Source: an uncultured Clostridia bacterium (GTDB lineage: Bacteria; Bacillota; Clostridia; TANB77; CAG-508). From it: a stretch of 64,000 bases of DNA. Position 1 is the stretch's first letter; every line of letters starts with the position of its first letter. The notes under the pieces are model-generated. The model saw only the letters and a list, made by a program, of their open reading frames with translations, did no database searches and was not told the DNA's origin. Both the position numbers and the translations under genes were made by a program. The DNA is taken from NCBI GenBank assembly GCA_944393465.1, contig CALYAG010000003.1, positions 40,404-104,403 on the forward strand, in the 5' to 3' direction. Shown here piece after piece: positions 5,630-57,670 of the stretch.

Positions 5630-5940
5630 CCAAAAAAGACCCCATCCTTTTAGGACGAAGTCTTTCCGCGGTACCACCTAATTTAAAAGAATTTATATTA
5701 TTTCTTATTCTTTTCTCTCTAATATCTTTAACGCAGATTTACGGCTTAAACTAATAACAACCGCTTTCGTCTAAGCAACATATAAGTGATAATAAATAAA
5801 TAGTTTCTTACTAGCATCTCACCACCACTAGCTCTCTAAAAAGGCTTGTTTATTTACCGTGTCTTATATATAGTTTTTATATATGATATGACTATTTTAC
5901 AACGTTTTATGTAAAAAAGTCAAGGTTTTTCTGTAAATCT
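5630..5940 (-). promoter_or_regulatory. T-box riboswitch leader (tRNA-Ile responsive) controlling ileS
   Basis: The minus strand reads AAATTAGGTGGTACCGCGGAAAG (coords 5666-5684), the conserved T-box antiterminator motif. An AGAGAG / AGUGG stem-I-like segment lies upstream, a candidate TTGACT-N18-TAAAAT promoter near 5925-5895, and a terminator-like hairpin plus U-run at ~5630-5660. Confidence 0.75.
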
Positions 5941-33120: not shown

Positions 33121-33292
33121 TCAGGTATACCGTTATAAAATACCCGCAATTTCAAAGTCAAAATTTGATTACCAACACTTTATCAAAATTTTGAAAACTA
33201 CTTGACTTAATTTTATTAAAAGTATAATATTTAGTTAAGTTATTTTTCCTCGAAGAGTATTTTTACTCTTCTACAAAGCAAAGGAGAAAATT

Positions 33293-33640
33293 ATGGACGC
33301 TTATTTTTCGAGAGACAACATTCGTATCTGGCGTGATTCGAAAAATAATTCTTTGAATTTTATGTTCATGGAAGACGAAAAAAATTGCGTCAAACAACCT
33401 CATATCTTTTCTAAGCAGGATGTGCTTAACTTTATGATGCCGTACATTTATGAGCTTGCCTATTTTGAGGCTTATGGTGAGCCTTATATTGTCCAAGAAT
33501 ATCAAAAAGCAATTAACTTTAAAGATTCTCTTGAAGATTGGCTTAACTCATGCATTGCCTATGGAATCATGACGCTTACCGAAGCTAGTCTTGTTCTTAG
33601 TGAGCTTTATCTACCCAACGAAAAATTTTCTCCAATCTAA
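33293..33640 (+). CDS. Orphan small hypothetical protein (115 aa) in a GC-rich island with its own promoter and terminator
   Basis: ATG behind AAAGGAGAAAATT. The sequence MDAYFSRDNIRIWRDS... has no recognisable family. Local GC is ~40% vs ~28% in flanks. Candidate promoter TTGACT(33202)-N16-TATAAT(33224-33229). Two hairpins follow downstream. Confidence 0.55.
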   Translation: MDAYFSRDNIRIWRDSKNNSLNFMFMEDEKNCVKQPHIFSKQDVLNFMMPYIYELAYFEAYGEPYIVQEYQKAINFKDSLEDWLNSCIAYGIMTLTEASLVLSELYLPNEKFSPI

Positions 33641-33685
33641 TCTACCTTTGTAGATTAGAATTCTACCTATATTATTTAAAAGCAG

Positions 33686-33722
33686 CAAATCGGTATCTCT
33701 TTCGAGGTACCGATTCGCTTTT
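33686..33722 (+). terminator. Intrinsic terminator after the orphan gene
   Basis: GCAAATCGGTATCTCTTTCGAGGTACCGATTCGC followed by TTTTTAC. A second perfect hairpin, AATCTAATCTACCTTTGTAGATTAGAATT, lies at 33634-33662. Confidence 0.6.
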
Positions 33723-33784
33723 TACTATTTGACTTTTTTGTTAAATAATAATTTATTCAAAAAGTTTTGTTTTAATATTTTAAA

Positions 33785-39240: not shown

Positions 39241-39768
39241 TTAAAAAATAACTTCAAAAATCTCTGCTGGTTTCATATCTCCACAATCACAAATAGATTG
39301 AAAAGCCATTTTGTGTGCAACAACAATTACTGTATCATAATTTTCTTTATATTTATTAATAACAGACATGACTCTATTTCTTAATTGCTCTTTTGTTTCC
39401 CACTTTCTTTTTTCGCCAACTGGATATACTCCATCATTTTTTATGTAATCATTATAATATTTCTGCATTTCTTCATTATTTTTGTATTGATATGTAAGAT
39501 CAGGTTGCCATTCTCTTATATCTGGCTCAATAACAATATCCAATCCTGTCTCCTTAGATATTATACTAGCCGTTTGTAATGCTCTTGTATATGGTGAAGA
39601 AACAATAATTTGTGCTTTCTTTAATCTTTTATCTTTTGATGTTTTTATTACCTCTCCTATCCTATCTTCTTTTAATGGTGCTAAATCATGTCCTTGCCCT
39701 ATAAATCCGTGAGTATCTCCATATGAATAATCTGGTTTGCCATGTCTAATTAAATAAAATGTTGCCAT
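39241..39768 (-). CDS. Histidine phosphatase family protein (phosphoglycerate-mutase-like)
   Basis: 175 aa. The N-terminal LIRHGK motif (RHG catalytic His), the conserved Arg and the later VAH are present. Confidence 0.8.
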   Translation of the reverse strand: MATFYLIRHGKPDYSYGDTHGFIGQGHDLAPLKEDRIGEVIKTSKDKRLKKAQIIVSSPYTRALQTASIISKETGLDIVIEPDIREWQPDLTYQYKNNEEMQKYYNDYIKNDGVYPVGEKRKWETKEQLRNRVMSVINKYKENYDTVIVVAHKMAFQSICDCGDMKPAEIFEVIF

Positions 39769-39807: not shown

Positions 39808-41154
39808 TTATCTTTCATAAAAATATATTTTAAAAGTAGTTCCTTTATGTAAAACTGATGAACAAGATATGCTAGCATTTTGTTTTTCTAATATAGTTTT
39901 TGAAAGTGATAAGCCTATTCCAAAGCTGTTTTCTGAAGAATTTTTTCCTTTATAAAATCTTTCAAAAATATGCTTTAAATCTTTTTCGTCTATGCCTTCT
40001 CCCTCATCTTCTATTATTAGTTCTGTATAAACATTAGTCACTCTTATTTGTATATGTATTTTTTTACTTTCTTGTGTATGTTCAATGCAATTTTTTATTA
40101 TGTTTGTGACCGCTTCTAGCGTCCACCTATAATCACCAATAACTTCTAGACTTGCTTTATTTAATTTATTGTTTTTAGCTGAATTATTATTTAGATTTTT
40201 TTCTTTATTAACCTCGCTTACTTCGTCAAAATTAGTTTCCACTTGTATATTTTTTATTTCTAGTGGTATTTCTAAGTTTTTTATTGCATTTTGCACTAAC
40301 ACATCTAACCTATATTTGCTTTTTTCAAATTCAACTGTTCCACTATCCAATTTTGAAAGTTTTAAAAGTGCAATTGTTAAAAAGCTTATTTGCTCGGCTT
40401 GTCTACTTATCTCAAAAATAAATCTTTGCCTTGTTTCTTCATCCATATTTTGATTGTCTTTTAGTTCATCAAGCATTATTGAAATAGATGTTAAAGGTGT
40501 TTTTATTTGATGAGAAATATCTGACAGACTCTTTGCTAAAAATTTCTTATCTTTTTTAGAGTTTTCTGCTTCTTCTTTTAGCATTAATGTTATTTTGTAT
40601 AATTCATTTCTTAAATTTGATAGCTCATCTTCTGCATTTTCTTTTATTTTTAGTTCATAATTTTTGTTGTTTATTTCTCTTATATATTTTGTTATTCCAT
40701 CTATTTTTCTTTTTTGCATTATTCTACTTACTAGCCATATTGCTATTATTGCTAGTACTAGAACCCCTATTACTATCCCAGAATATATAATTGTGTTATT
40801 TTGCATTTTTTCTAAACTCAAAATTGCAGATTCGTTTTCGGTTATTCCATATTTTTGAACTAATTCTTTGCCGATTTCTGCCTTTGAATTTACATTTTCA
40901 TTTAAGTTGTTATTACTATTTGATGTTTCAGTATTATATGTTGAACTTACCGCCTCAGAATTATTTAAAATTCTTATTATCTCCTCATCTGATACTTCTG
41001 GGTAATTTTCTCTAATTGTACCTATAAGAGCATATACCTGCTCGTTATATTCTTGTATTTGCAAATTATATGAATTGTTTAATATTATACCATTTACTAC
41101 GACTGCTATTATTAGAAGTACTAATGTTAGTACAATAAACTTAGTTTTTTTCAT
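39808..41154 (-). CDS. Sensor histidine kinase (two TM helices flanking a ~100-aa extracytoplasmic loop; HisKA plus HATPase_c)
   Basis: 448 aa with an H-box SDISHQIKTPLTSI and N/G boxes (IEDEGEGI, GIGLSL). Confidence 0.85.
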   Translation of the reverse strand: MKKTKFIVLTLVLLIIAVVVNGIILNNSYNLQIQEYNEQVYALIGTIRENYPEVSDEEIIRILNNSEAVSSTYNTETSNSNNNLNENVNSKAEIGKELVQKYGITENESAILSLEKMQNNTIIYSGIVIGVLVLAIIAIWLVSRIMQKRKIDGITKYIREINNKNYELKIKENAEDELSNLRNELYKITLMLKEEAENSKKDKKFLAKSLSDISHQIKTPLTSISIMLDELKDNQNMDEETRQRFIFEISRQAEQISFLTIALLKLSKLDSGTVEFEKSKYRLDVLVQNAIKNLEIPLEIKNIQVETNFDEVSEVNKEKNLNNNSAKNNKLNKASLEVIGDYRWTLEAVTNIIKNCIEHTQESKKIHIQIRVTNVYTELIIEDEGEGIDEKDLKHIFERFYKGKNSSENSFGIGLSLSKTILEKQNASISCSSVLHKGTTFKIYFYER

Positions 41155-41205
41155 CTGCCTTAAATTTACTCCTTTATAATGTTTTTGTGTGGTGTCACTT
41201 ATTAA

Positions 41206-41931
41206 TTATTTTTCATCTACTTTGTATCCTACTCCTCTAATTGTTTTTATTATTTTACCATCTGTGTCTCCAAGTTTTTCTCTAATTCTTTTTATATATA
41301 CTGTTAATGTATTGTCATTTACAAAATTTCCTGCCAAGTCCCATATTTTATTTAATATTGCTTCTCTTGTAACTAATTTATTTTTATTGGTAAATAGCAT
41401 TAGAAGTATTTTGAATTCTAAACTTGTAAGTTCTATAGATTTGCCATCTTTTTTTACTTCCATATTTTCTGTATCTAGAATTATTCCATTGCACTCAATT
41501 GTTGATGATGAAAGCTTGTTGTATCTTCTAAGTGCCACTTTTATTCTTGAAATTAATTCTTTAACTCTAAATGGCTTTACTATATAATCTTCTGCACCTA
41601 GATCTAAACCTTTAACTATATCTATTTCTTCATCTCGTGCTGTTAAAAATATGACTGGTACATCTTCTTTTTTCTTTAATTCCTTAAAAAAGTCAAAACC
41701 ATTTCCATCTGGAAGTGTTATATCTAATAATATTAGGTCAATTTTTGAGATATCCTTATTTTTCGTTTCTTTGGCTTTGTTTATTTCAAATTCTCTACCT
41801 TGATTTATTATGCATTTTTCTGCTTCTGTTATTGTTTTTGCTGTTATTACTCTAAATCCTTCTTGCTCTAACGAATATTTTAGTCCCATTATTATTGCGT
41901 CACTGTCTTCTACTAATAAAATTGTGTTCAT
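41206..41931 (-). CDS. Response regulator, OmpR/PhoB family (winged-helix DNA-binding)
   Basis: 241 aa with a receiver Asp in LILLDITLPDGNGF and a C-terminal trans_reg_C (YIKRIREKL). Confidence 0.9.
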   Translation of the reverse strand: MNTILLVEDSDAIIMGLKYSLEQEGFRVITAKTITEAEKCIINQGREFEINKAKETKNKDISKIDLILLDITLPDGNGFDFFKELKKKEDVPVIFLTARDEEIDIVKGLDLGAEDYIVKPFRVKELISRIKVALRRYNKLSSSTIECNGIILDTENMEVKKDGKSIELTSLEFKILLMLFTNKNKLVTREAILNKIWDLAGNFVNDNTLTVYIKRIREKLGDTDGKIIKTIRGVGYKVDEK

Positions 41932-42161
41932 ATTCTCCCCTTTTTATCTTTTTAAACTTTTTTGAATTTTCTTTATAAAATCTATTTTTACTTGTTCTAT
42001 TATAACAAGTTTTTTCTTATGTTTCAATTGAAATTTTATTAAGTTTTTTGACTATGACAAAACTCTTAATAACGTATCTTAAAAATTAGTCAAAATAAAG
42101 AAACAGTCATTAATTAAATTTTGCATTATATCAATCAGTTTGAATTTGTATTATGTCAAAT

Positions 42162-42190
42162 TTGCCAAATACAATTATTTGTGCTATAAT
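42162..42190 (+). promoter_or_regulatory. Near-consensus sigma-A promoter for the GC-rich orphan gene
   Basis: TTGCCA(42162-42167)-N17-TGcTATAAT(42185-42190), followed by the GGAGG RBS and the ATG at 42222. Confidence 0.6.
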
Positions 42191-42221
42191 ATATGTATTA
42201 CTCTATTGGAGGTGTATATTA

Positions 42222-42665
42222 ATGATCATCAAGCAAAACGGACTAGAAAATGTAGAAGGACAGAAAGTCATAACATCAGAGAAGCTATTCGACGTACTTG
42301 TCGGTGCTTTGTACGCAAGTGATTTTTCTGGACAAACTTCTGTGGGAGACTTGCAGCTTATGGCAGCAATCTATCGAGATTTGCCTAGATTTGATTTAAA
42401 GTCAAAGTATGGCGATCGAGGTCTCGTTACTCGGTTGCTAACAGACTTTATAAAATCAAACCCGCAAAAGCGTGGAAACACAGGTAAGCTGGTTTCCGCA
42501 GAATTCATCTTTGTTGACGGGAAATCTCGCTCAAAGAAATTGAAGGCAAAGGCAATCAAGTTAATCACATTAGGCAGAGATAAAGGAGAAGAGGAGAAAA
42601 TTGAAAACCTCTCCTCAACATTGTCCGCCTACTGCCTGCATTACCTTTTCGGTTTTGCACAGTAA
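42222..42665 (+). CDS. Orphan small hypothetical protein (147 aa) in a GC-rich island
   Basis: The ATG at 42222 follows GGAGGTGTATATTA. The track ORF starts earlier at an alternative codon. ~43% GC vs ~28% flanks, with codon usage (CGA, CTC, GGT-rich) unlike neighbours. No recognisable motifs. A strong terminator follows. Confidence 0.55.
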   Translation: MIIKQNGLENVEGQKVITSEKLFDVLVGALYASDFSGQTSVGDLQLMAAIYRDLPRFDLKSKYGDRGLVTRLLTDFIKSNPQKRGNTGKLVSAEFIFVDGKSRSKKLKAKAIKLITLGRDKGEEEKIENLSSTLSAYCLHYLFGFAQ

Positions 42666-42671
42666 TTACAC

Positions 42672-42706
42672 CAAAAGCCGGGGAGCACCTGCTCCCCGGC
42701 TTCATT
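42672..42706. terminator. Bidirectional intrinsic terminator between the convergent orphan gene and clpX
   Basis: AAAAGCCGGGGAGCACCTGCTCCCCGGCTTCATTTT: a 10-bp GC-rich stem flanked by an A-run and a U-run. Confidence 0.75.
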
Positions 42707-42755
42707 TTGTATTAATGATATTTGTATTTTTAATACTTAAAATATTTTTCAATCT

Positions 42756-44060
42756 CTACGCTGTCTCTTTTGCCTCAGTTTTTTGTCTTCTAACCTTTTT
42801 AGGTTTTTCTACTCTATTTTCGTCAATAACAACCTCTGGCTTTGCTGTTCCTTCAACAGTTTCCTTTGTAATAGTGCATTTAACTATTTTAGGATTTGAA
42901 GGTATATCATACATTACGTCTCTCATAGTTTCTTCCATAATAGAACGTAAGCCTCTTGCGCCTGTTTTTCTTTCAATAGCTTTATCAACGATTGCTTCTA
43001 ATGCTTCCCCCGTAAACTCTAAGTCAACGCCATCTATTTGAAGTAGTTTTTTGTATTGTTTTACTAATGCATTTTTTGGCTTTGTCATAATATCTATAAG
43101 TGCATTTCTATCTAATTCGCGTAGTGTTGCTATTATAGGCAATCTACCTACAAACTCAGGAATTAAGCCGAATTTAAGCAAATCTTGTGGTAACAATTCT
43201 TCATAAATTTTGTATTTATCCACTTCTTTTGCACTTTGTATATTTGTTCCAAATCCTATAGCTTTTTTGCCTATTCTGTCACCTATTATTTTGTCTAAAC
43301 CTTCAAAAGCACCTCCACATATGAACAATATGTTTGATGTATTGATTTGTAAAAACTCTTGATGTGGATGTTTTCTTCCTCCTTGAGGTGGAACTGATGC
43401 AACTGTTCCTTCTATTATTTTTAGAAGGGCTTGTTGAACTCCTTCACCACTAACATCTCTTGTAATAGATGGATTTTCCGATTTTCTTGAAATCTTATCT
43501 ATTTCATCAATGTATATAATTCCTTTTTCAGCTTTTTCTATATTGTAATCTGCTGCTTGAATTAATTTAAGTAGAATGTTTTCAACATCTTCGCCAACAT
43601 AACCTGCCTCAGTTAATGTTGTTGCATCTGCTATTGCAAATGGAACTTTTAATATTTTAGCAAGTGTTTGAGCTAAAAATGTTTTTCCACAACCAGTAGG
43701 ACCAAGTAAAAGTACATTGCTTTTTTGTATTTCTACGTCGTCATCAGATTTTTCTTCTTCACTATTTATACGTTTATAGTGATTATATACTGCAACAGAC
43801 AAAGTTTTTTTAGCATCATCTTGACCTATAACATACTCATCTAAAATTTTTCTTATTTCTTCTGGAGTAGGTAATTTTTCTTCTTCATTTAAAGTATATC
43901 TTTCATCAAATTCTTCATAATCGTCTGTTTCTAATATGTTGTTGCATACTTGGATACACTCATTACAAATGTATACTCCTGGGCCTGCAACCATTTTATG
44001 AACACTCTCTTGTGGTTTTCCACAAAATGAGCATCTAATACTTTGAGTCTTTTTTGGCAT
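42756..44060 (-). CDS. clpX: ATP-dependent Clp protease ATP-binding subunit ClpX
   Basis: 434 aa with an N-terminal C4 zinc finger (CSFCGK...CNEC), Walker A GPTGCGKT, and an IGF-like loop. Confidence 0.95.
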
Positions 44061-44257
44061 TTTTAATCTTTCCTTTCTCGTTTCGCAGAAAATTCAATTT
44101 GGCATTTTTAAATAGGAAACACTTGATTTTCTATTTAAAAATTAATAAACACCAAACCTTAATTTTATCGTCACTTGTTTTCTTATGTGATATTATATCA
44201 AAATAATAATATTTTATTAATTTATTATTTCGCATTGTGTGTCATATTATTAAGTTA

Positions 44258-44872
44258 TTATTTTCTCTTATCCATTATGCCATCAATCAAACCATAAGCT
44301 AAAGCTTCCTGTGCTGTCATGTAATGGTCTCTTTCTGTATCTCTTTCAATTACGTCAATTGGTTGACCTGTTCTTTCACTTAATAATTTGTTGATTTTTT
44401 CTCTTGTCTTAATCATTTGGTCTGCGTGAATTTTTATTTCTGTTGCTTGACCAGAAAGGCCTCCACCTTGACCACCAATTAATGGTTGATGGATAAGTAT
44501 TTCTGCATTTGGTGTAGCAAATCTTTTGCCCTTTTCACCTGATGCTAAAAGTACTGCACCCATACTTGCTGCCATACCTACACATATTGTTGTTACTGGG
44601 CATTTGATGTAGTTCATTGTATCAACTATACCAAATCCATCTGAAACTGATCCTCCTGGTGAATTTATGTATAAAGATATTTCTTTATCTGGGTCTTCTG
44701 ACTCCAAAAATAGCATTTGAGCTATTACTAAACTTGCTGATGTTTGATTAACATCTTCACTTAAAAATATTATTCTGTCTTTTAACAATCTTGAGAAAAT
44801 ATCATATGATCTTTCTCCTCTTGCTGATTGTTCTATTACATAAGGTACTAAACTGTCATTAAATTCTTTCAT
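44258..44872 (-). CDS. clpP: ATP-dependent Clp protease proteolytic subunit ClpP
   Basis: 204 aa. The Ser-His-Asp triad context (GMAASMGA, ...IHQP...) is present. Part of the tig-clpP-clpX cluster. Confidence 0.95.
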
Positions 44873-54925: not shown

Positions 54926-55447
54926 TTAAACTAATTTTAAGATAACTGTTTCTGCAGCATCTCCTCTACGCTGACCTAGCTTAATTATTTGTGTATATCC
55001 ACCGTCTCGATCTGTGTATCTTGGTGCGATTACATTAAATAATTTGTCTGTTAAGTCTATTGGAGTACCTTCATTATCTTTTACTTTATTTAATTTTGTC
55101 ATCATTTTTCTTCTAGCATTTAATCTTGATGGCTTGTCTTTTTGTCTTTTTTCCATTTTTTCTTCTTTAACAACTTTTAGGAATTCTTTTCCATTTTTGC
55201 TTTTTACTAATTCAGTTTCTTTATTTCCCTTGCTGTCGCGTTTTGCTTTTACAACTTTTACTTCTACTTCATCAAAGTTGTCTTTTTCTTTAACAGCAAG
55301 TGCTATTAGGCTATCTACTATAGCTTTTACTTCTTTAGCTCTAGCTTCAGTTGTTTGAATTTGCTCATGCCAAATTAGGTCTGTTGACAAGTTTTTTAGC
55401 ATTGCTAGTCTAATGTCAGTAGTTTTTCCTAATTTTCTATTTGCCAT
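54926..55447 (-). CDS. rplQ: 50S ribosomal protein L17 with a ~60-aa Lys/Glu-rich internal insertion
   Basis: 173 aa vs ~115-125 typical. Conserved ends (MANRKLGKTTDIRLAMLKNLSTDL...TTEARAKE... and ...RYTDRDGGYTQIIKLGQRRGD) flank an insertion KEKDNFDEVEVKVVKAKRDSKGNKETELVKSKNGKEFLKVVKEEKMEKRQKDK. Confidence 0.85.
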   Translation of the reverse strand: MANRKLGKTTDIRLAMLKNLSTDLIWHEQIQTTEARAKEVKAIVDSLIALAVKEKDNFDEVEVKVVKAKRDSKGNKETELVKSKNGKEFLKVVKEEKMEKRQKDKPSRLNARRKMMTKLNKVKDNEGTPIDLTDKLFNVIAPRYTDRDGGYTQIIKLGQRRGDAAETVILKLV

Positions 55448-55519
55448 TTTACCTTTCCTCCTATTCTTGGTTACATTTCATAATTTGCCTTTTAAAAGAT
55501 TATTTCTTTATTTTCTTGC

Positions 55520-56467
55520 TTATTCTTCTTCTTTGGTTAAATCTAAGCCTAAGTCGTGTAATTTTGCTATTACTTCTTCTAATGATTTTTTGCCTAAATT
55601 CTTAACTTTCATCATATCATTTTCTGTTTTATTAGCTAAATCACCAACTGTTGATATTCCTGATCTTTTTAAGCAGTTGAATGATCTTACAGATAATTCT
55701 AAGTCTTCTATAGGCATTTCTAAGATTTTTTCCTTCTTATTTTCTTCTTTTTCAATCATTATTTGAGTATTTTTTGCTGTTTCTGATAAATCTACAAATA
55801 ATTTTAAGTGTTCTGTAAGAACTTTTGCAGCTAAGCTTAATGCTTCATATGGCTCTAAGCTTCCGTCTGTCCATAATTCTATTGTTAATTTATCATAGTC
55901 AACCATTTGACCAACTCTAGTATTTTCTACTGAGTAGTTTACTTTTTTAACTGGTGAATAGATAGAATCTATTGCTATTACTCCAATTGGCTGATTTGGT
56001 GTTTTATTTTTTTCTGCAGTATTATATCCTCTTCCCATATCTGCGCACATTTCCATATTTAGTTTTCCACCTTTTGAAACTGTTGCAATATGTAAGTCTG
56101 GATTTAATATTTCTACTGTACCATCTGTAATAATGTCTCCGGCTTTTACCTCGCCTTCACCTTCGAAGTTAATTCTAAGTGTTTTTTCTTCGTTTTTGTC
56201 CATTTTTATTCTTACCATTTTTAGGTTTAGAATTATTTCTGGAACATCTTCTACTACATTTGGTATTGTAGTGAATTCGTGTTGAGCACCGTCAATTTTT
56301 ACACTCTTTATTGCACATCCTGGTAATGATGAAAGTAGTATTCTTCTTAATGAATTTCCGATAGTGATACCATAACCACGCTCTAGTGGCTCACATACAA
56401 ATTTTGCATATTTTTTTTCATCATCTATCTCCAAACATTTAATATTTGGCTTTTCGAATTCTATCAT
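55520..56467 (-). CDS. rpoA: DNA-directed RNA polymerase subunit alpha
   Basis: 315 aa with N-terminal dimerisation and C-terminal CTD domains. Canonical position between rpsD and rplQ. Confidence 0.95.
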
Positions 56468-56623
56468 TTTTACCTCCTAATAATTTGAGATTACCTCTCT
56501 TTTATAAAACTTAGTAATATAAAATTAGTTTTAATTTTTATAATCATATAATGTAATATCTTTTAATTTTAAGAATTTACATTTTGCAAACATCCGTAAT
56601 TTTATTATACTAATTAAAACCTA

Positions 56624-57250
56624 TTATTTAGAGTAAAGCTCTACTATTAAATGCTCTTCAACTGGTAGATCTACATCTTCTCTATCAGCTAATCTGACTA
56701 CTTTACCACTTAATTTTTCGCTATCTTTTTCTAACCATGTTGGAACTGGTCTTGAGCTATTAACTTCAATAGCCTGTTTGATTGTTCCATTGTCTTTTTT
56801 AATTTCTCTTACTGATATTACATCTCCAGCTTTTACAATGTATGATGGAATATTAACTTTCTTTCCATTTACATCAAAAGCTCCATGTGTTACAAGCATT
56901 CTTGCTTGAGCTCTTGAACTAGCAAAACCTAGTCTATATACTACGTTGTCTAGTCTGCTTTCTAGTAATTGTAGTAAAACTTCACCTGTTTTACCTTTTG
57001 TATTAGATGCCATTTCAAAGTATTTTCTGAATTGTTTTTCTCCAACACCATAGAATGACTTTGTTTTTTGTTTTTCTCTTAATTGTGTACCGTATTCAGA
57101 AAGTTTTGCTTTCTTTTGACCATTTTGTCCTGGAGCATAGTTTCTTCTGCTTATGCTGCATTTGTCTGAATAACATCTTTCGCCTTTAAGGAATAATTTT
57201 TGTCCTTCTCTACGGCATATACGGCACTGTTCGTCCTTATATCTTGACAT
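56624..57250 (-). CDS. rpsD: 30S ribosomal protein S4
   Basis: 208 aa. N-terminal zinc-ribbon-like [18 protein letters not shown] and an S4 RNA-binding domain. Confidence 0.95.
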
Positions 57251-57271
57251 TTTATATCCTCCTTTTTAGAA

Positions 57272-57670
57272 TTAAACTCTTCTTCTTTTTGGTGGTCTAC
57301 AACCATTGTGTGGGATTGGTGTTACATCTCTTATTGATGTAATTTCTAATCCTGCTGTTTGTAATGCTCTTATTGCAGATTCACGTCCTGCTCCTGGGCC
57401 TTTAACATATACTTCTACTGTTTTTAGTCCATGTTCCATTGCTGCTTTTGCTGCTGTTTCAGCAACTTCTCCAGCTGCAAATGGTGTACTTTTTCTTGAA
57501 CCTTTGAATCCAAGTCCTCCAGCACTTGCCCAAGATATTGTGTTACCTTGAACGTCTGAAATTGTAACTATTGTATTATTAAAACTAGAATGGATATGTG
57601 CTTTTCCACTTTCAATGTTTTTGCTTACTCTTCTTCTAGTTGTAACTTTTTTTGCTGACTTTGTAGCCAT
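57272..57670 (-). CDS. rpsK: 30S ribosomal protein S11
   Basis: 132 aa with a conserved S11 core ([16 protein letters not shown]...W.S.G). Confidence 0.95.

Follow-up and report, generated by a model that had tools for sequence, protein, structure and literature searches.

An orphan gene of 147 codons, convergent with clpX in a 64,000-nucleotide stretch of contig CALYAG010000003.1 from an uncultured Clostridia bacterium (this whole stretch is hereafter the window), can be compared with several described bacterial systems: dual-function RNAs, such as RNAIII/hld of Staphylococcus aureus, SR1/SR1P of Bacillus subtilis and VR-RNA of Clostridium perfringens; stable Gram-positive mRNAs with a strong Shine-Dalgarno (SD) sequence near the 5' end, such as gsiB, cryIIIA with its STAB-SD, and the aprE leader; type I toxin mRNAs; morons and genomic islets; and modules of the BceRS/BceAB type. 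In Gram-positive bacteria, pervasive structure, a perfect SD close to the 5' end, closed transcript ends and a strong hairpin slow the decay of an mRNA, as gsiB and the cryIIIA STAB-SD illustrate; such an SD, together with a short 5'UTR and a strong terminator, protects it from 5'-end-dependent degradation. We know of no accessory protein like the orphan product for BceRS/BceAB-type modules. For the hok mRNA, translation is silenced by pairing between the two ends of the transcript and is activated on 3' processing (PMC4147584). The reading that we favour for the orphan gene, with a probability of roughly 0.55, is that it is transcribed strongly into an mRNA which is stabilised by its structure and encodes a cytosolic protein that evolves fast, and that its silent sites are under selection for tight folding.

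Like type I toxin mRNAs (hok/sok of plasmid R1; tisB/istR-1), the orphan gene has a transcript that is compact, highly folded and served by a promoter and a terminator of its own, and its ribosome-binding region has a predicted pairing partner far away, near the 3' end (PMC4147584). It differs from them in that its product is a soluble protein of 147 amino acids rather than a membrane peptide of fewer than 60, in that its transcript has no long 5' untranslated region (5'UTR) or leader open reading frame (ORF) and an SD that is only partly paired, and in that no antisense RNA or antisense promoter was found for it; a promoter scan of the minus strand over 42222-42712 returned no promoter-like site, although consensus scans cannot exclude one. 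With dual-function RNAs it has in common a free-standing, structured transcript of a few hundred nucleotides with an ORF inside it, in a low-G+C Firmicute, but here the ORF takes up 86% of a transcript of ~510 nucleotides, selection acts at the level of the protein, deep lineages differ in their base pairs, and no target-pairing region was identified in the transcript. Like the gsiB, cryIIIA and aprE mRNAs, it combines a strong terminator with a short 5'UTR in which a perfect GGAGG SD lies ~12 nucleotides from the inferred 5' end, but the stability of those mRNAs comes from the 5' element alone, whereas the coding sequence (CDS) of the orphan gene itself carries excess structure and shifted codons. 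Morons and genomic islets resemble it in being self-contained units of atypical composition, on the opposite strand and in a slot that varies between clades; unlike them, it is richer rather than poorer in G+C than its host, is fixed and syntenic across its clade, and has neither a phage or mobile context nor a donor in the collections searched. As for BceRS/BceAB-type modules, it is divergent from an OmpR-type regulator that is accompanied by a histidine kinase and an FtsX/MacB-type ABC transporter of the peptide-antibiotic type, but a comparison of four lineages revealed no conserved operator or response-regulator binding repeat beyond the core promoter, and a regulator-kinase pair 67% identical to the adjoining one, found in another context (after recO, L026), is not accompanied by the orphan gene.

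The G+C content of the ORF is 41.7% (0.39-0.445 in 200-nucleotide windows), compared with 30.0% for the window and 26-34% (0.26-0.34) for the neighbouring genes, and the excess lies mainly at third codon positions, where the G+C fraction (GC3) is 0.42, the highest of 48 ORFs in the window, for which the mean is 0.176. The codon-adaptation index, with the window's own genes as the reference, is 0.34, against 0.71 +/- 0.04 (minimum 0.60) for 46 genes, and among homologues it ranges from 0.24 to 0.34. Codons which each make up no more than 2% of their family in the window (CTC, CTG, CGA, CGC, CGG, TCC, GTC) are used freely, while CCA, which accounts for 71% of the window's proline codons, is not used at all. 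The bias spans all codon families (AAG, GAG, CAG, NNC, NNG) and is not that of one tRNA. An earlier annotation made from the letters of the DNA alone (the sequence-only reading) had remarked on this atypical G+C content and codon usage, and had described a cassette of promoter, ribosome-binding site, ORF and terminator; both observations hold, every element lies where it had been placed, and the rare codons that were named occur in the ORF twice (CGA), twice (CTC) and four times (GGT). An overlapping or antisense gene was considered as the source of the high GC3 and rejected, since antisense ORFs are short and not conserved.

High GC3 is a property of every lineage (0.42-0.55, against 0.08-0.19 for neighbours on the same contigs), and it has persisted through extensive silent divergence. 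Divergence at four-fold sites was normalised to each gene pair's own composition-aware saturation level, because composition inflates the raw Nei-Gojobori proportion of synonymous differences (pS, 0.86). For the window compared with the L001 clade, the normalised divergence amounts to 82-87% of saturation for the orphan gene, 65-77% for the regulator, 54-61% for clpX, 47% for clpP and 40% for tig. Most silent sites have been replaced since the split and GC3 has not decayed toward the genomic value of 0.15 in any branch, which argues that the high GC3 is being kept up and is not a legacy of some donor. The idea of hypermutation, or of an allele older than the species, to which the raw pS had pointed, was dropped in the light of the composition-aware four-fold analysis; for the close pair L001 and L003, the synonymous divergence (dS) is 0.09, as against 0.06-0.29 in neighbouring genes, and there is therefore no local hypermutation.

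The folding of the whole transcript, evaluated against dinucleotide shuffles, has z-scores of -8.4 for the window copy, -8.1 for L003 and -6.5 for L008, and the CDS alone, without the terminator, gives values of -3.4 to -7.9 in eight homologues. Permutation of synonymous codons, which keeps the protein and the codon counts and only reassigns the synonymous codons, provides a stricter background, and against it the CDS has z-scores of -4.2 to -7.1 in eight homologues and -3.3 in a ninth (L023). This excess over synonymous permutation implies that codon placement, and not only G+C content, favours pairing. When 47 other genes of the window were evaluated in the same way, the mean z-score was -1.22 (standard deviation 1.27, minimum -3.69); the orphan gene is the extreme of the window, with a z-score of -4.7 and a folding energy of -139 kcal/mol over 444 nucleotides where -50 to -100 is typical. 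The strongest background values, -3.5 to -3.7, belong to four adjacent genes on the minus strand at 54926-57670.

The pairs themselves are less durable than the folding. Pair-probability overlap, computed on the codon alignment, is high within the sub-clade formed by L003, L005, L006, L017 and L018 (z = 6-15), but is near the null between the window copy and this sub-clade (z = 0.2-2.6), and is likewise null between L008 and all others. Because pairs are shared within the sub-clade and not between the three deep lineages, we read the selection as acting on the amount of folding, with individual helices turning over. This pattern fits a property of the mRNA, such as stability, resistance to RNases or Rho, or elongation rate, better than it fits a ribozyme-like fold, and a single conserved rod-like fold was set aside in view of the whole-transcript folds together with the pair-overlap comparison. 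Nuclease-motif avoidance, as in ACA-less mRNAs, was also rejected, as no 3- or 4-mer is systematically missing from the transcript.

In AT-rich genomes, islands of high G+C content are enriched for structured RNAs and typically represent them (PMC6429828), and for this reason the possibility of an RNA gene was tested first. An Rfam search over the region gave nothing at the gathering score and only noise at E <= 10 (families such as OLE, ROOL, GOLLD, raiA, tmRNA, RNase P and 6S included), and ARAGORN found no tmRNA. The frame, length, start and stop are all conserved among homologues, of which 19 are full-length (147-149 amino acids, 59-65% identity), with indels of whole codons and 60 invariant columns, and the ratio of nonsynonymous to synonymous divergence (dN/dS) is 0.11-0.23 wherever dS is measurable. 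The orphan ORF is a real protein-coding gene under purifying selection; a non-coding RNA with a chance ORF is ruled out by the absence of Rfam and tmRNA matches, the conserved frame and a dN/dS of ~0.15.

The protein is soluble by sequence (GRAVY -0.23, no transmembrane-like segment) and diverges in amino acids ~7-9 times faster than ClpX, while its pI drifts from 9.4 in the window to as low as 5.8 across lineages. AlphaFold2, run on a shallow alignment, predicts with confidence (pLDDT 84, pTM 0.81) a compact alpha/beta domain with the order b-b-a-a-a-a-b-b-b-a. Searches of Pfam, NCBIfam, PHROGs and PADLOC, and of PDB sequences by profile, gave no significant match, and Foldseek matched nothing in PDB or BFVD at E <= 0.001, no query TM-score exceeding 0.34; by these comparisons the gene fits no described protein family. 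A dsRNA-binding domain, to which an alpha-beta-beta-beta-alpha order at residues 68-143 and a KKxAK-like string had pointed, was rejected, since hhalign against E. coli RNase III gave a probability of 0.1, the KKxAK motif is missing in P0022, and the pI shows no conservation. When 1.84 billion cluster representatives were searched exhaustively with a HMMER profile, four proteins emerged: the family's own cluster, the truncated P0021, the 147-residue P0022 (27-30% identity) and one spurious repeat protein. Since the spurious protein is the only match outside the clade, the family is, by this search, confined to one clade of uncultured gut Clostridia of ~28-30% G+C, known from metagenome-assembled genomes, for which the nearest named ClpX is that of Clostridium sp. 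CAG:793 (85% identity). In animal-gut metagenomes the gene is common, with the exact protein present in 130 index blocks of the contig collection.

Comparison of the loci further indicates that the orphan gene is a resident, vertically inherited and clade-restricted gene and not a recent foreign insertion. Its slot, between the regulator and clpX-clpP-tig, is identical in every recovered locus (L001, L003, L005-L009, L011-L018, L021-L023), with ABC transporter, kinase and regulator on the other side, and is kept by the lineage with only 27-30% protein identity (L008, L009, L023). Identity between the window and L001 is 96% for ClpX, 98% for ClpP, 95% for Tig, 90% for the regulator and 63% for the orphan protein, and between the window and L008 the corresponding figures are 89%, 96%, 84%, 74% (regulator taken from L009) and 27%. 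In its divergence ranks the orphan protein agrees with ClpX, ClpP, Tig and the regulator; it would accordingly seem from these alignments to evolve fast but along the same tree as its neighbours. Viral contigs, phage records and plasmid records contain no homologue. The gene adjoins the two-component/ABC module wherever it is present and is missing only where the whole block is also missing (L024, L025); it probably reached the slot with, or beside, this block in the ancestor of the clade, in what would be an ancient event.

In the two sister clades, with ClpX 85% and 84% identical, other cargo lies downstream of clpX (L024 5369-6741; L025 5362-6492): a 246-residue WHH/colicin-DNase protein and an unrelated 149-residue gene with a GC3 of 0.42 in the first (L024), and a Big_14 protein and a Fic protein in the second. 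Because the sister clades hold different cargo, the site downstream of clpX is to be regarded as a variable slot for accessory or competition genes. In the metagenomic contig L020 (703-2632) an element has inserted into the homologue and interrupts it after codon 65 (...MAALY); the element begins with a gene for a large serine recombinase of 561 amino acids (Resolvase + Recombinase + Zn_ribbon_recom). This interruption suggests that the orphan gene is dispensable and can be used as an integration site. Two alleles have a mosaic appearance: that of P0005 has 100 N-terminal residues of L001 type and 47 C-terminal residues of L006 type, and that of L021 combines a 5'UTR of L003 type with coding parts of L005/L018 type. 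Either interspecies recombination or chimeric metagenome assembly would account for them.

The regulatory sequences of the gene are conserved to a greater degree than the coding sequence that they enclose. The promoter matches 11 of 12 consensus positions in the promoter scan and shares first place in 41000-44500 with the regulator's own promoter. When the window is compared with the main clade, the promoter and 5'UTR are 82-91% identical and the 3'UTR and terminator 82-93%, compared with 67-69% for the CDS and 62-67% for the upstream spacer, and the -35 region AATTTGC.AA, TG.TATAAT, the start region and GGAGGT are invariant across four deep lineages. A regulator box shared with the ABC promoter was considered and rejected as a weak match (70% over 27 nucleotides) that is not conserved. 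The terminator, which serves both the orphan gene and the convergent clpX, has a stem that is near-invariant in the main clade, with a compensatory change of G-C to A-U in L005 and one G-U in L001; the L008 lineage has a different G+C-rich hairpin at this place. In L022 (1429-1475) the terminator loop is inverted, with GAGCAGGTGCTC for GAGCACCTGCTC and the stem unchanged, a change which resembles hairpin-loop inversion.

The two ends of the transcript are also predicted to interact. GGUGUA, which starts with the last two G of the SD, complements UACACC (42667-42672), which lies past the stop codon and ahead of the terminator, and partition-function folding assigns this pairing a probability of 0.6-0.99 in six of eight homologues. 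In L001 and L003 the 3' element has decayed to ACAC, and a local anti-SD, CCCUUU, is present instead; the L008 lineage has UGUGC/GCACA at the equivalent places, possibly a compensatory change. RNAalifold pairs the SD with an internal ACNUYUC element as well. Two of the five SD bases are strongly paired, and the mean SD pairing is 0.52-0.71, as against a transcript average of 0.62-0.67. Taken together, the predictions are suggestive of 5'-3' end pairing.

Several of the claims made in the sequence-only reading can be judged against these results. The recently acquired, moron-like insertion that it proposed is contradicted by the occupation of the same slot in all lineages, by purifying selection, by the absence of relatives in phages, plasmids and viral contigs, and by the persistence of high GC3. 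Its other proposal, a strongly selected small regulatory protein, is borne out as far as selection is concerned (dN/dS ~0.12-0.2, near-invariant promoter and terminator), but neither a conserved operator nor a regulator motif turned up. An ordinary conserved small gene was expected to show the same slot and the same G+C content in all relatives, purifying selection and a match to a known family; the first three were found and the last was not.

In the mechanism that we favour, the orphan gene would be transcribed alone from a strong, apparently constitutive sigma-A promoter, and transcription would end at the strong terminator shared with clpX. Codons ending in G or C would have been both chosen and placed so as to base-pair, and the G+C excess would be the outcome of selection on folding at synonymous sites. 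With pervasive folding, a strong ribosome-binding site near the 5' end, probable pairing of the ends and a stable terminator hairpin, the transcript would be expected to be long-lived, shielded from single-strand-specific RNases and from Rho, and would support sustained, possibly attenuated, production of the protein. Folding is on this account the target of selection, while for its purpose we infer either mRNA stability or the control of translation. The combination of G+C-rich silent sites with a hyper-folded coding mRNA is unusual, and the mechanism outlined here for it is a predicted one.

A number of considerations weigh against this account. All of the folding is a thermodynamic prediction, and putative ribosomal-protein genes in the window reach a z-score of -3.6, so that the window copy (-4.7 to -6.1) is extreme without being of another order. 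The end pairing amounts to 5-7 base pairs at -8 to -10 kcal/mol, which is only modestly better than shuffled 3' segments (a fraction of 0.00-0.26 of which are as good). The rare codons and the partly paired SD could point to attenuated rather than high expression, and the high GC3 could have a cause that is not RNA folding, a constraint acting on the DNA for example. The account also leaves the role of the protein unexplained.

If the favoured account is true, it is a caution for genome scanning, because a G+C-rich, codon-atypical, self-contained cassette of the kind that is usually called foreign is here an old resident gene, whose silent sites are where selection keeps up the composition. 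It would also provide a natural test case for selection on mRNA folding that overrides mutational codon bias, with GC3 held at 0.42-0.55 against ~0.15 through saturating divergence and with the amount of folding kept while the pairs turn over. The protein would be of interest in its own right as a compact, confidently modelled domain with neither a sequence-family match nor a fold match in PDB or BFVD.

A more far-reaching form of the same idea, which we put forward only tentatively, is that of an armoured coding RNA, whose synonymous sites, in a genome of 30% G+C, have been kept G+C-rich and self-paired throughout the history of the clade, either for a function of the RNA itself or to allow the transcript to outlast bulk mRNA decay (caused by RNase toxins, stress or dormancy), so that a protective protein of novel fold would still be made.

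It is more doubtful that the ~510-nucleotide transcript is itself functional, as a regulator, scaffold or sponge, in addition to coding for the protein, with its G+C content reflecting the function of the RNA. Such a role is consistent with the whole-transcript z-scores, with a promoter, 5'UTR and terminator that are near-invariant while the CDS diverges, and with the enrichment of structured RNAs in G+C-rich islands of AT-rich genomes (PMC6429828). For the main clade RNAalifold gives 110 pairs, in which 94% of cells are paired; 12 of the pairs have changed on both sides, where shuffles give 4.4 +/- 1.6 and slid controls 2-4. However, the structure that was evaluated had been derived from the alignment itself, and covariation contributes a term of only -0.41 kcal/mol. 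The lack of any Rfam match even at E <= 10, the extent of the ORF within the transcript, and the differences in pairs among three groups (the main sub-clade, the window lineage and the L008 lineage) all argue against an RNA function of this kind.

A protective or immunity-like role for the protein is an attractive idea, the cues for which are rapid evolution, a constitutive promoter, a variable slot and competition-related neighbours. Stated fully, as a constitutive orphan protein that resembles an immunity protein or antitoxin and acts against a competitor's toxin, with an mRNA folded so as to survive RNase attack or stress-induced decay, it is in our judgement unlikely. The rate of divergence relative to ClpX and the drift in pI, the conservation of the core promoter without a conserved operator, the dispensability suggested by the mobile element in L020, the WHH/colicin-DNase toxin or Fic protein that occupies the slot in sister lineages, and the adjoining two-component/ABC module of peptide-antibiotic type all speak in its favour. 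On the other hand, no toxin gene is adjacent in any locus that carries the orphan gene, no Pfam, NCBIfam or PADLOC family is matched, no short motif is systematically avoided in the transcript, and homology to the 149-residue gene beside the WHH toxin in L024 was looked for and rejected, the two being unrelated on comparison. The argument is wholly inferential, and the link to stress or immunity that had been proposed from the position of the gene is speculation.

The chance is slimmer again that the transcript is gated as type I toxin mRNAs are, with a ribosome-binding site closed by end pairing and translated only after processing or unfolding. The predicted GGUGUA/UACACC pairing, the local anti-SD of L001 and L003, the internal partner of the SD and the precedent of hok (PMC4147584) are what such gating would lead one to expect, but the duplex energies are marginally significant, the pairing of the SD is about the transcript average, the product is a soluble protein rather than a small hydrophobic peptide, and the scan showed no antisense promoter within or beside the gene.

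Least probable, and largely refuted, is a foreign cassette whose composition is that of a G+C-richer donor, or which has been replaced repeatedly by recombination at conserved flanks: the atypical composition, the self-contained layout on the opposite strand, the flanks more conserved than the CDS, the inter-allele recombination suggested by P0005 and L021, and the variable slot of the sister clades, where cargo can also have raised GC3 (the 149-residue gene of L024), are outweighed by the lack of a donor among the 1.84 billion cluster representatives (where only own-clade clusters and the spurious repeat protein were found) and of any trace in viral contigs, phages and plasmids, by the single chromosomal slot for every copy of known context, by divergence congruent with that of the neighbours, and by a GC3 of 0.42-0.55 after near-saturation, when amelioration to ~0.15 would be expected.

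Table 1. Features of the orphan gene and its immediate surroundings (window coordinates).
Feature	Position	Strand	Details
ORF, 147 amino acids	42222-42665	+	147 codons; ATG at 42222, stop 42663-42665
Sigma-A type promoter	42162-42190	+	-35 TTGCCA 42162-42167, 17-nt spacer, extended -10 TGcTATAAT 42182-42190 (TG 42182-42183, TATAAT 42185-42190)
5'UTR, ~25 nt	42197-42221	+	transcription start inferred
SD GGAGGTG	42208-42214	+	7 nt ahead of ATG
3'UTR element TTACACC	42666-42672	+	complements GGTGTA(A) just past SD; candidate 5'-3' end pairing
Bidirectional intrinsic terminator	42675-42712	both	stem AAGCCGGGGAGC / GCTCCCCGGCTT (12 bp, 9 G-C pairs, 42675-42702), loop ACCT; T-runs flank on both strands
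clpX	42756-44060	-	convergent with orphan gene
Response regulator gene	41206-41931	-	divergent from orphan gene
Divergent intergenic spacer	41932-42161		poorly conserved apart from regulator operon's promoter
Regulator operon promoter	42027-41999	-	TTGAAA-17-TATAAT, within divergent spacer

The adjoining module itself varies between strains and lineages. In the window lineage only, the kinase and the ABC ATPase are separated by a His_Phos_1 histidine-phosphatase gene (39241-39768, minus strand), and in the L008/L023 lineage, which does not have it, the ABC genes begin 67 nucleotides after the kinase. In some strains of the window's own species the kinase beside the regulator is split into ORFs of 343 and 120 amino acids (L014 646-1933), and its length differs among strains, being 424 amino acids in some and 448 in others (L011/L012 compared with the window, 39808-41154, whose protein contains an Asn-rich stretch). 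Decay of the two-component system may be under way in part of the population.

Only two genes between 13965 and 63859 are on the plus strand, the orphan gene among them. A second plus-strand cassette among minus-strand genes is found at 33180-33730, between ftsK-like and metG-like genes (named by eye from their translations). It consists of a promoter-like TTGACT-15-TATAAT (33202-33228), a 5'UTR hairpin, AAAGGAG, an ORF of 115 amino acids (33293-33640) and a terminator hairpin. The ORF has the second highest GC3 in the window (0.365) and no significant match in Pfam or NCBIfam, and the z-score of its mRNA folding is only -1.5, so that it does not share the hyper-folding of the orphan gene. Elsewhere in the window, a T-box leader at 5648-5880 on the minus strand (RF00230, 111 bits) is the sole Rfam family to reach the gathering score.

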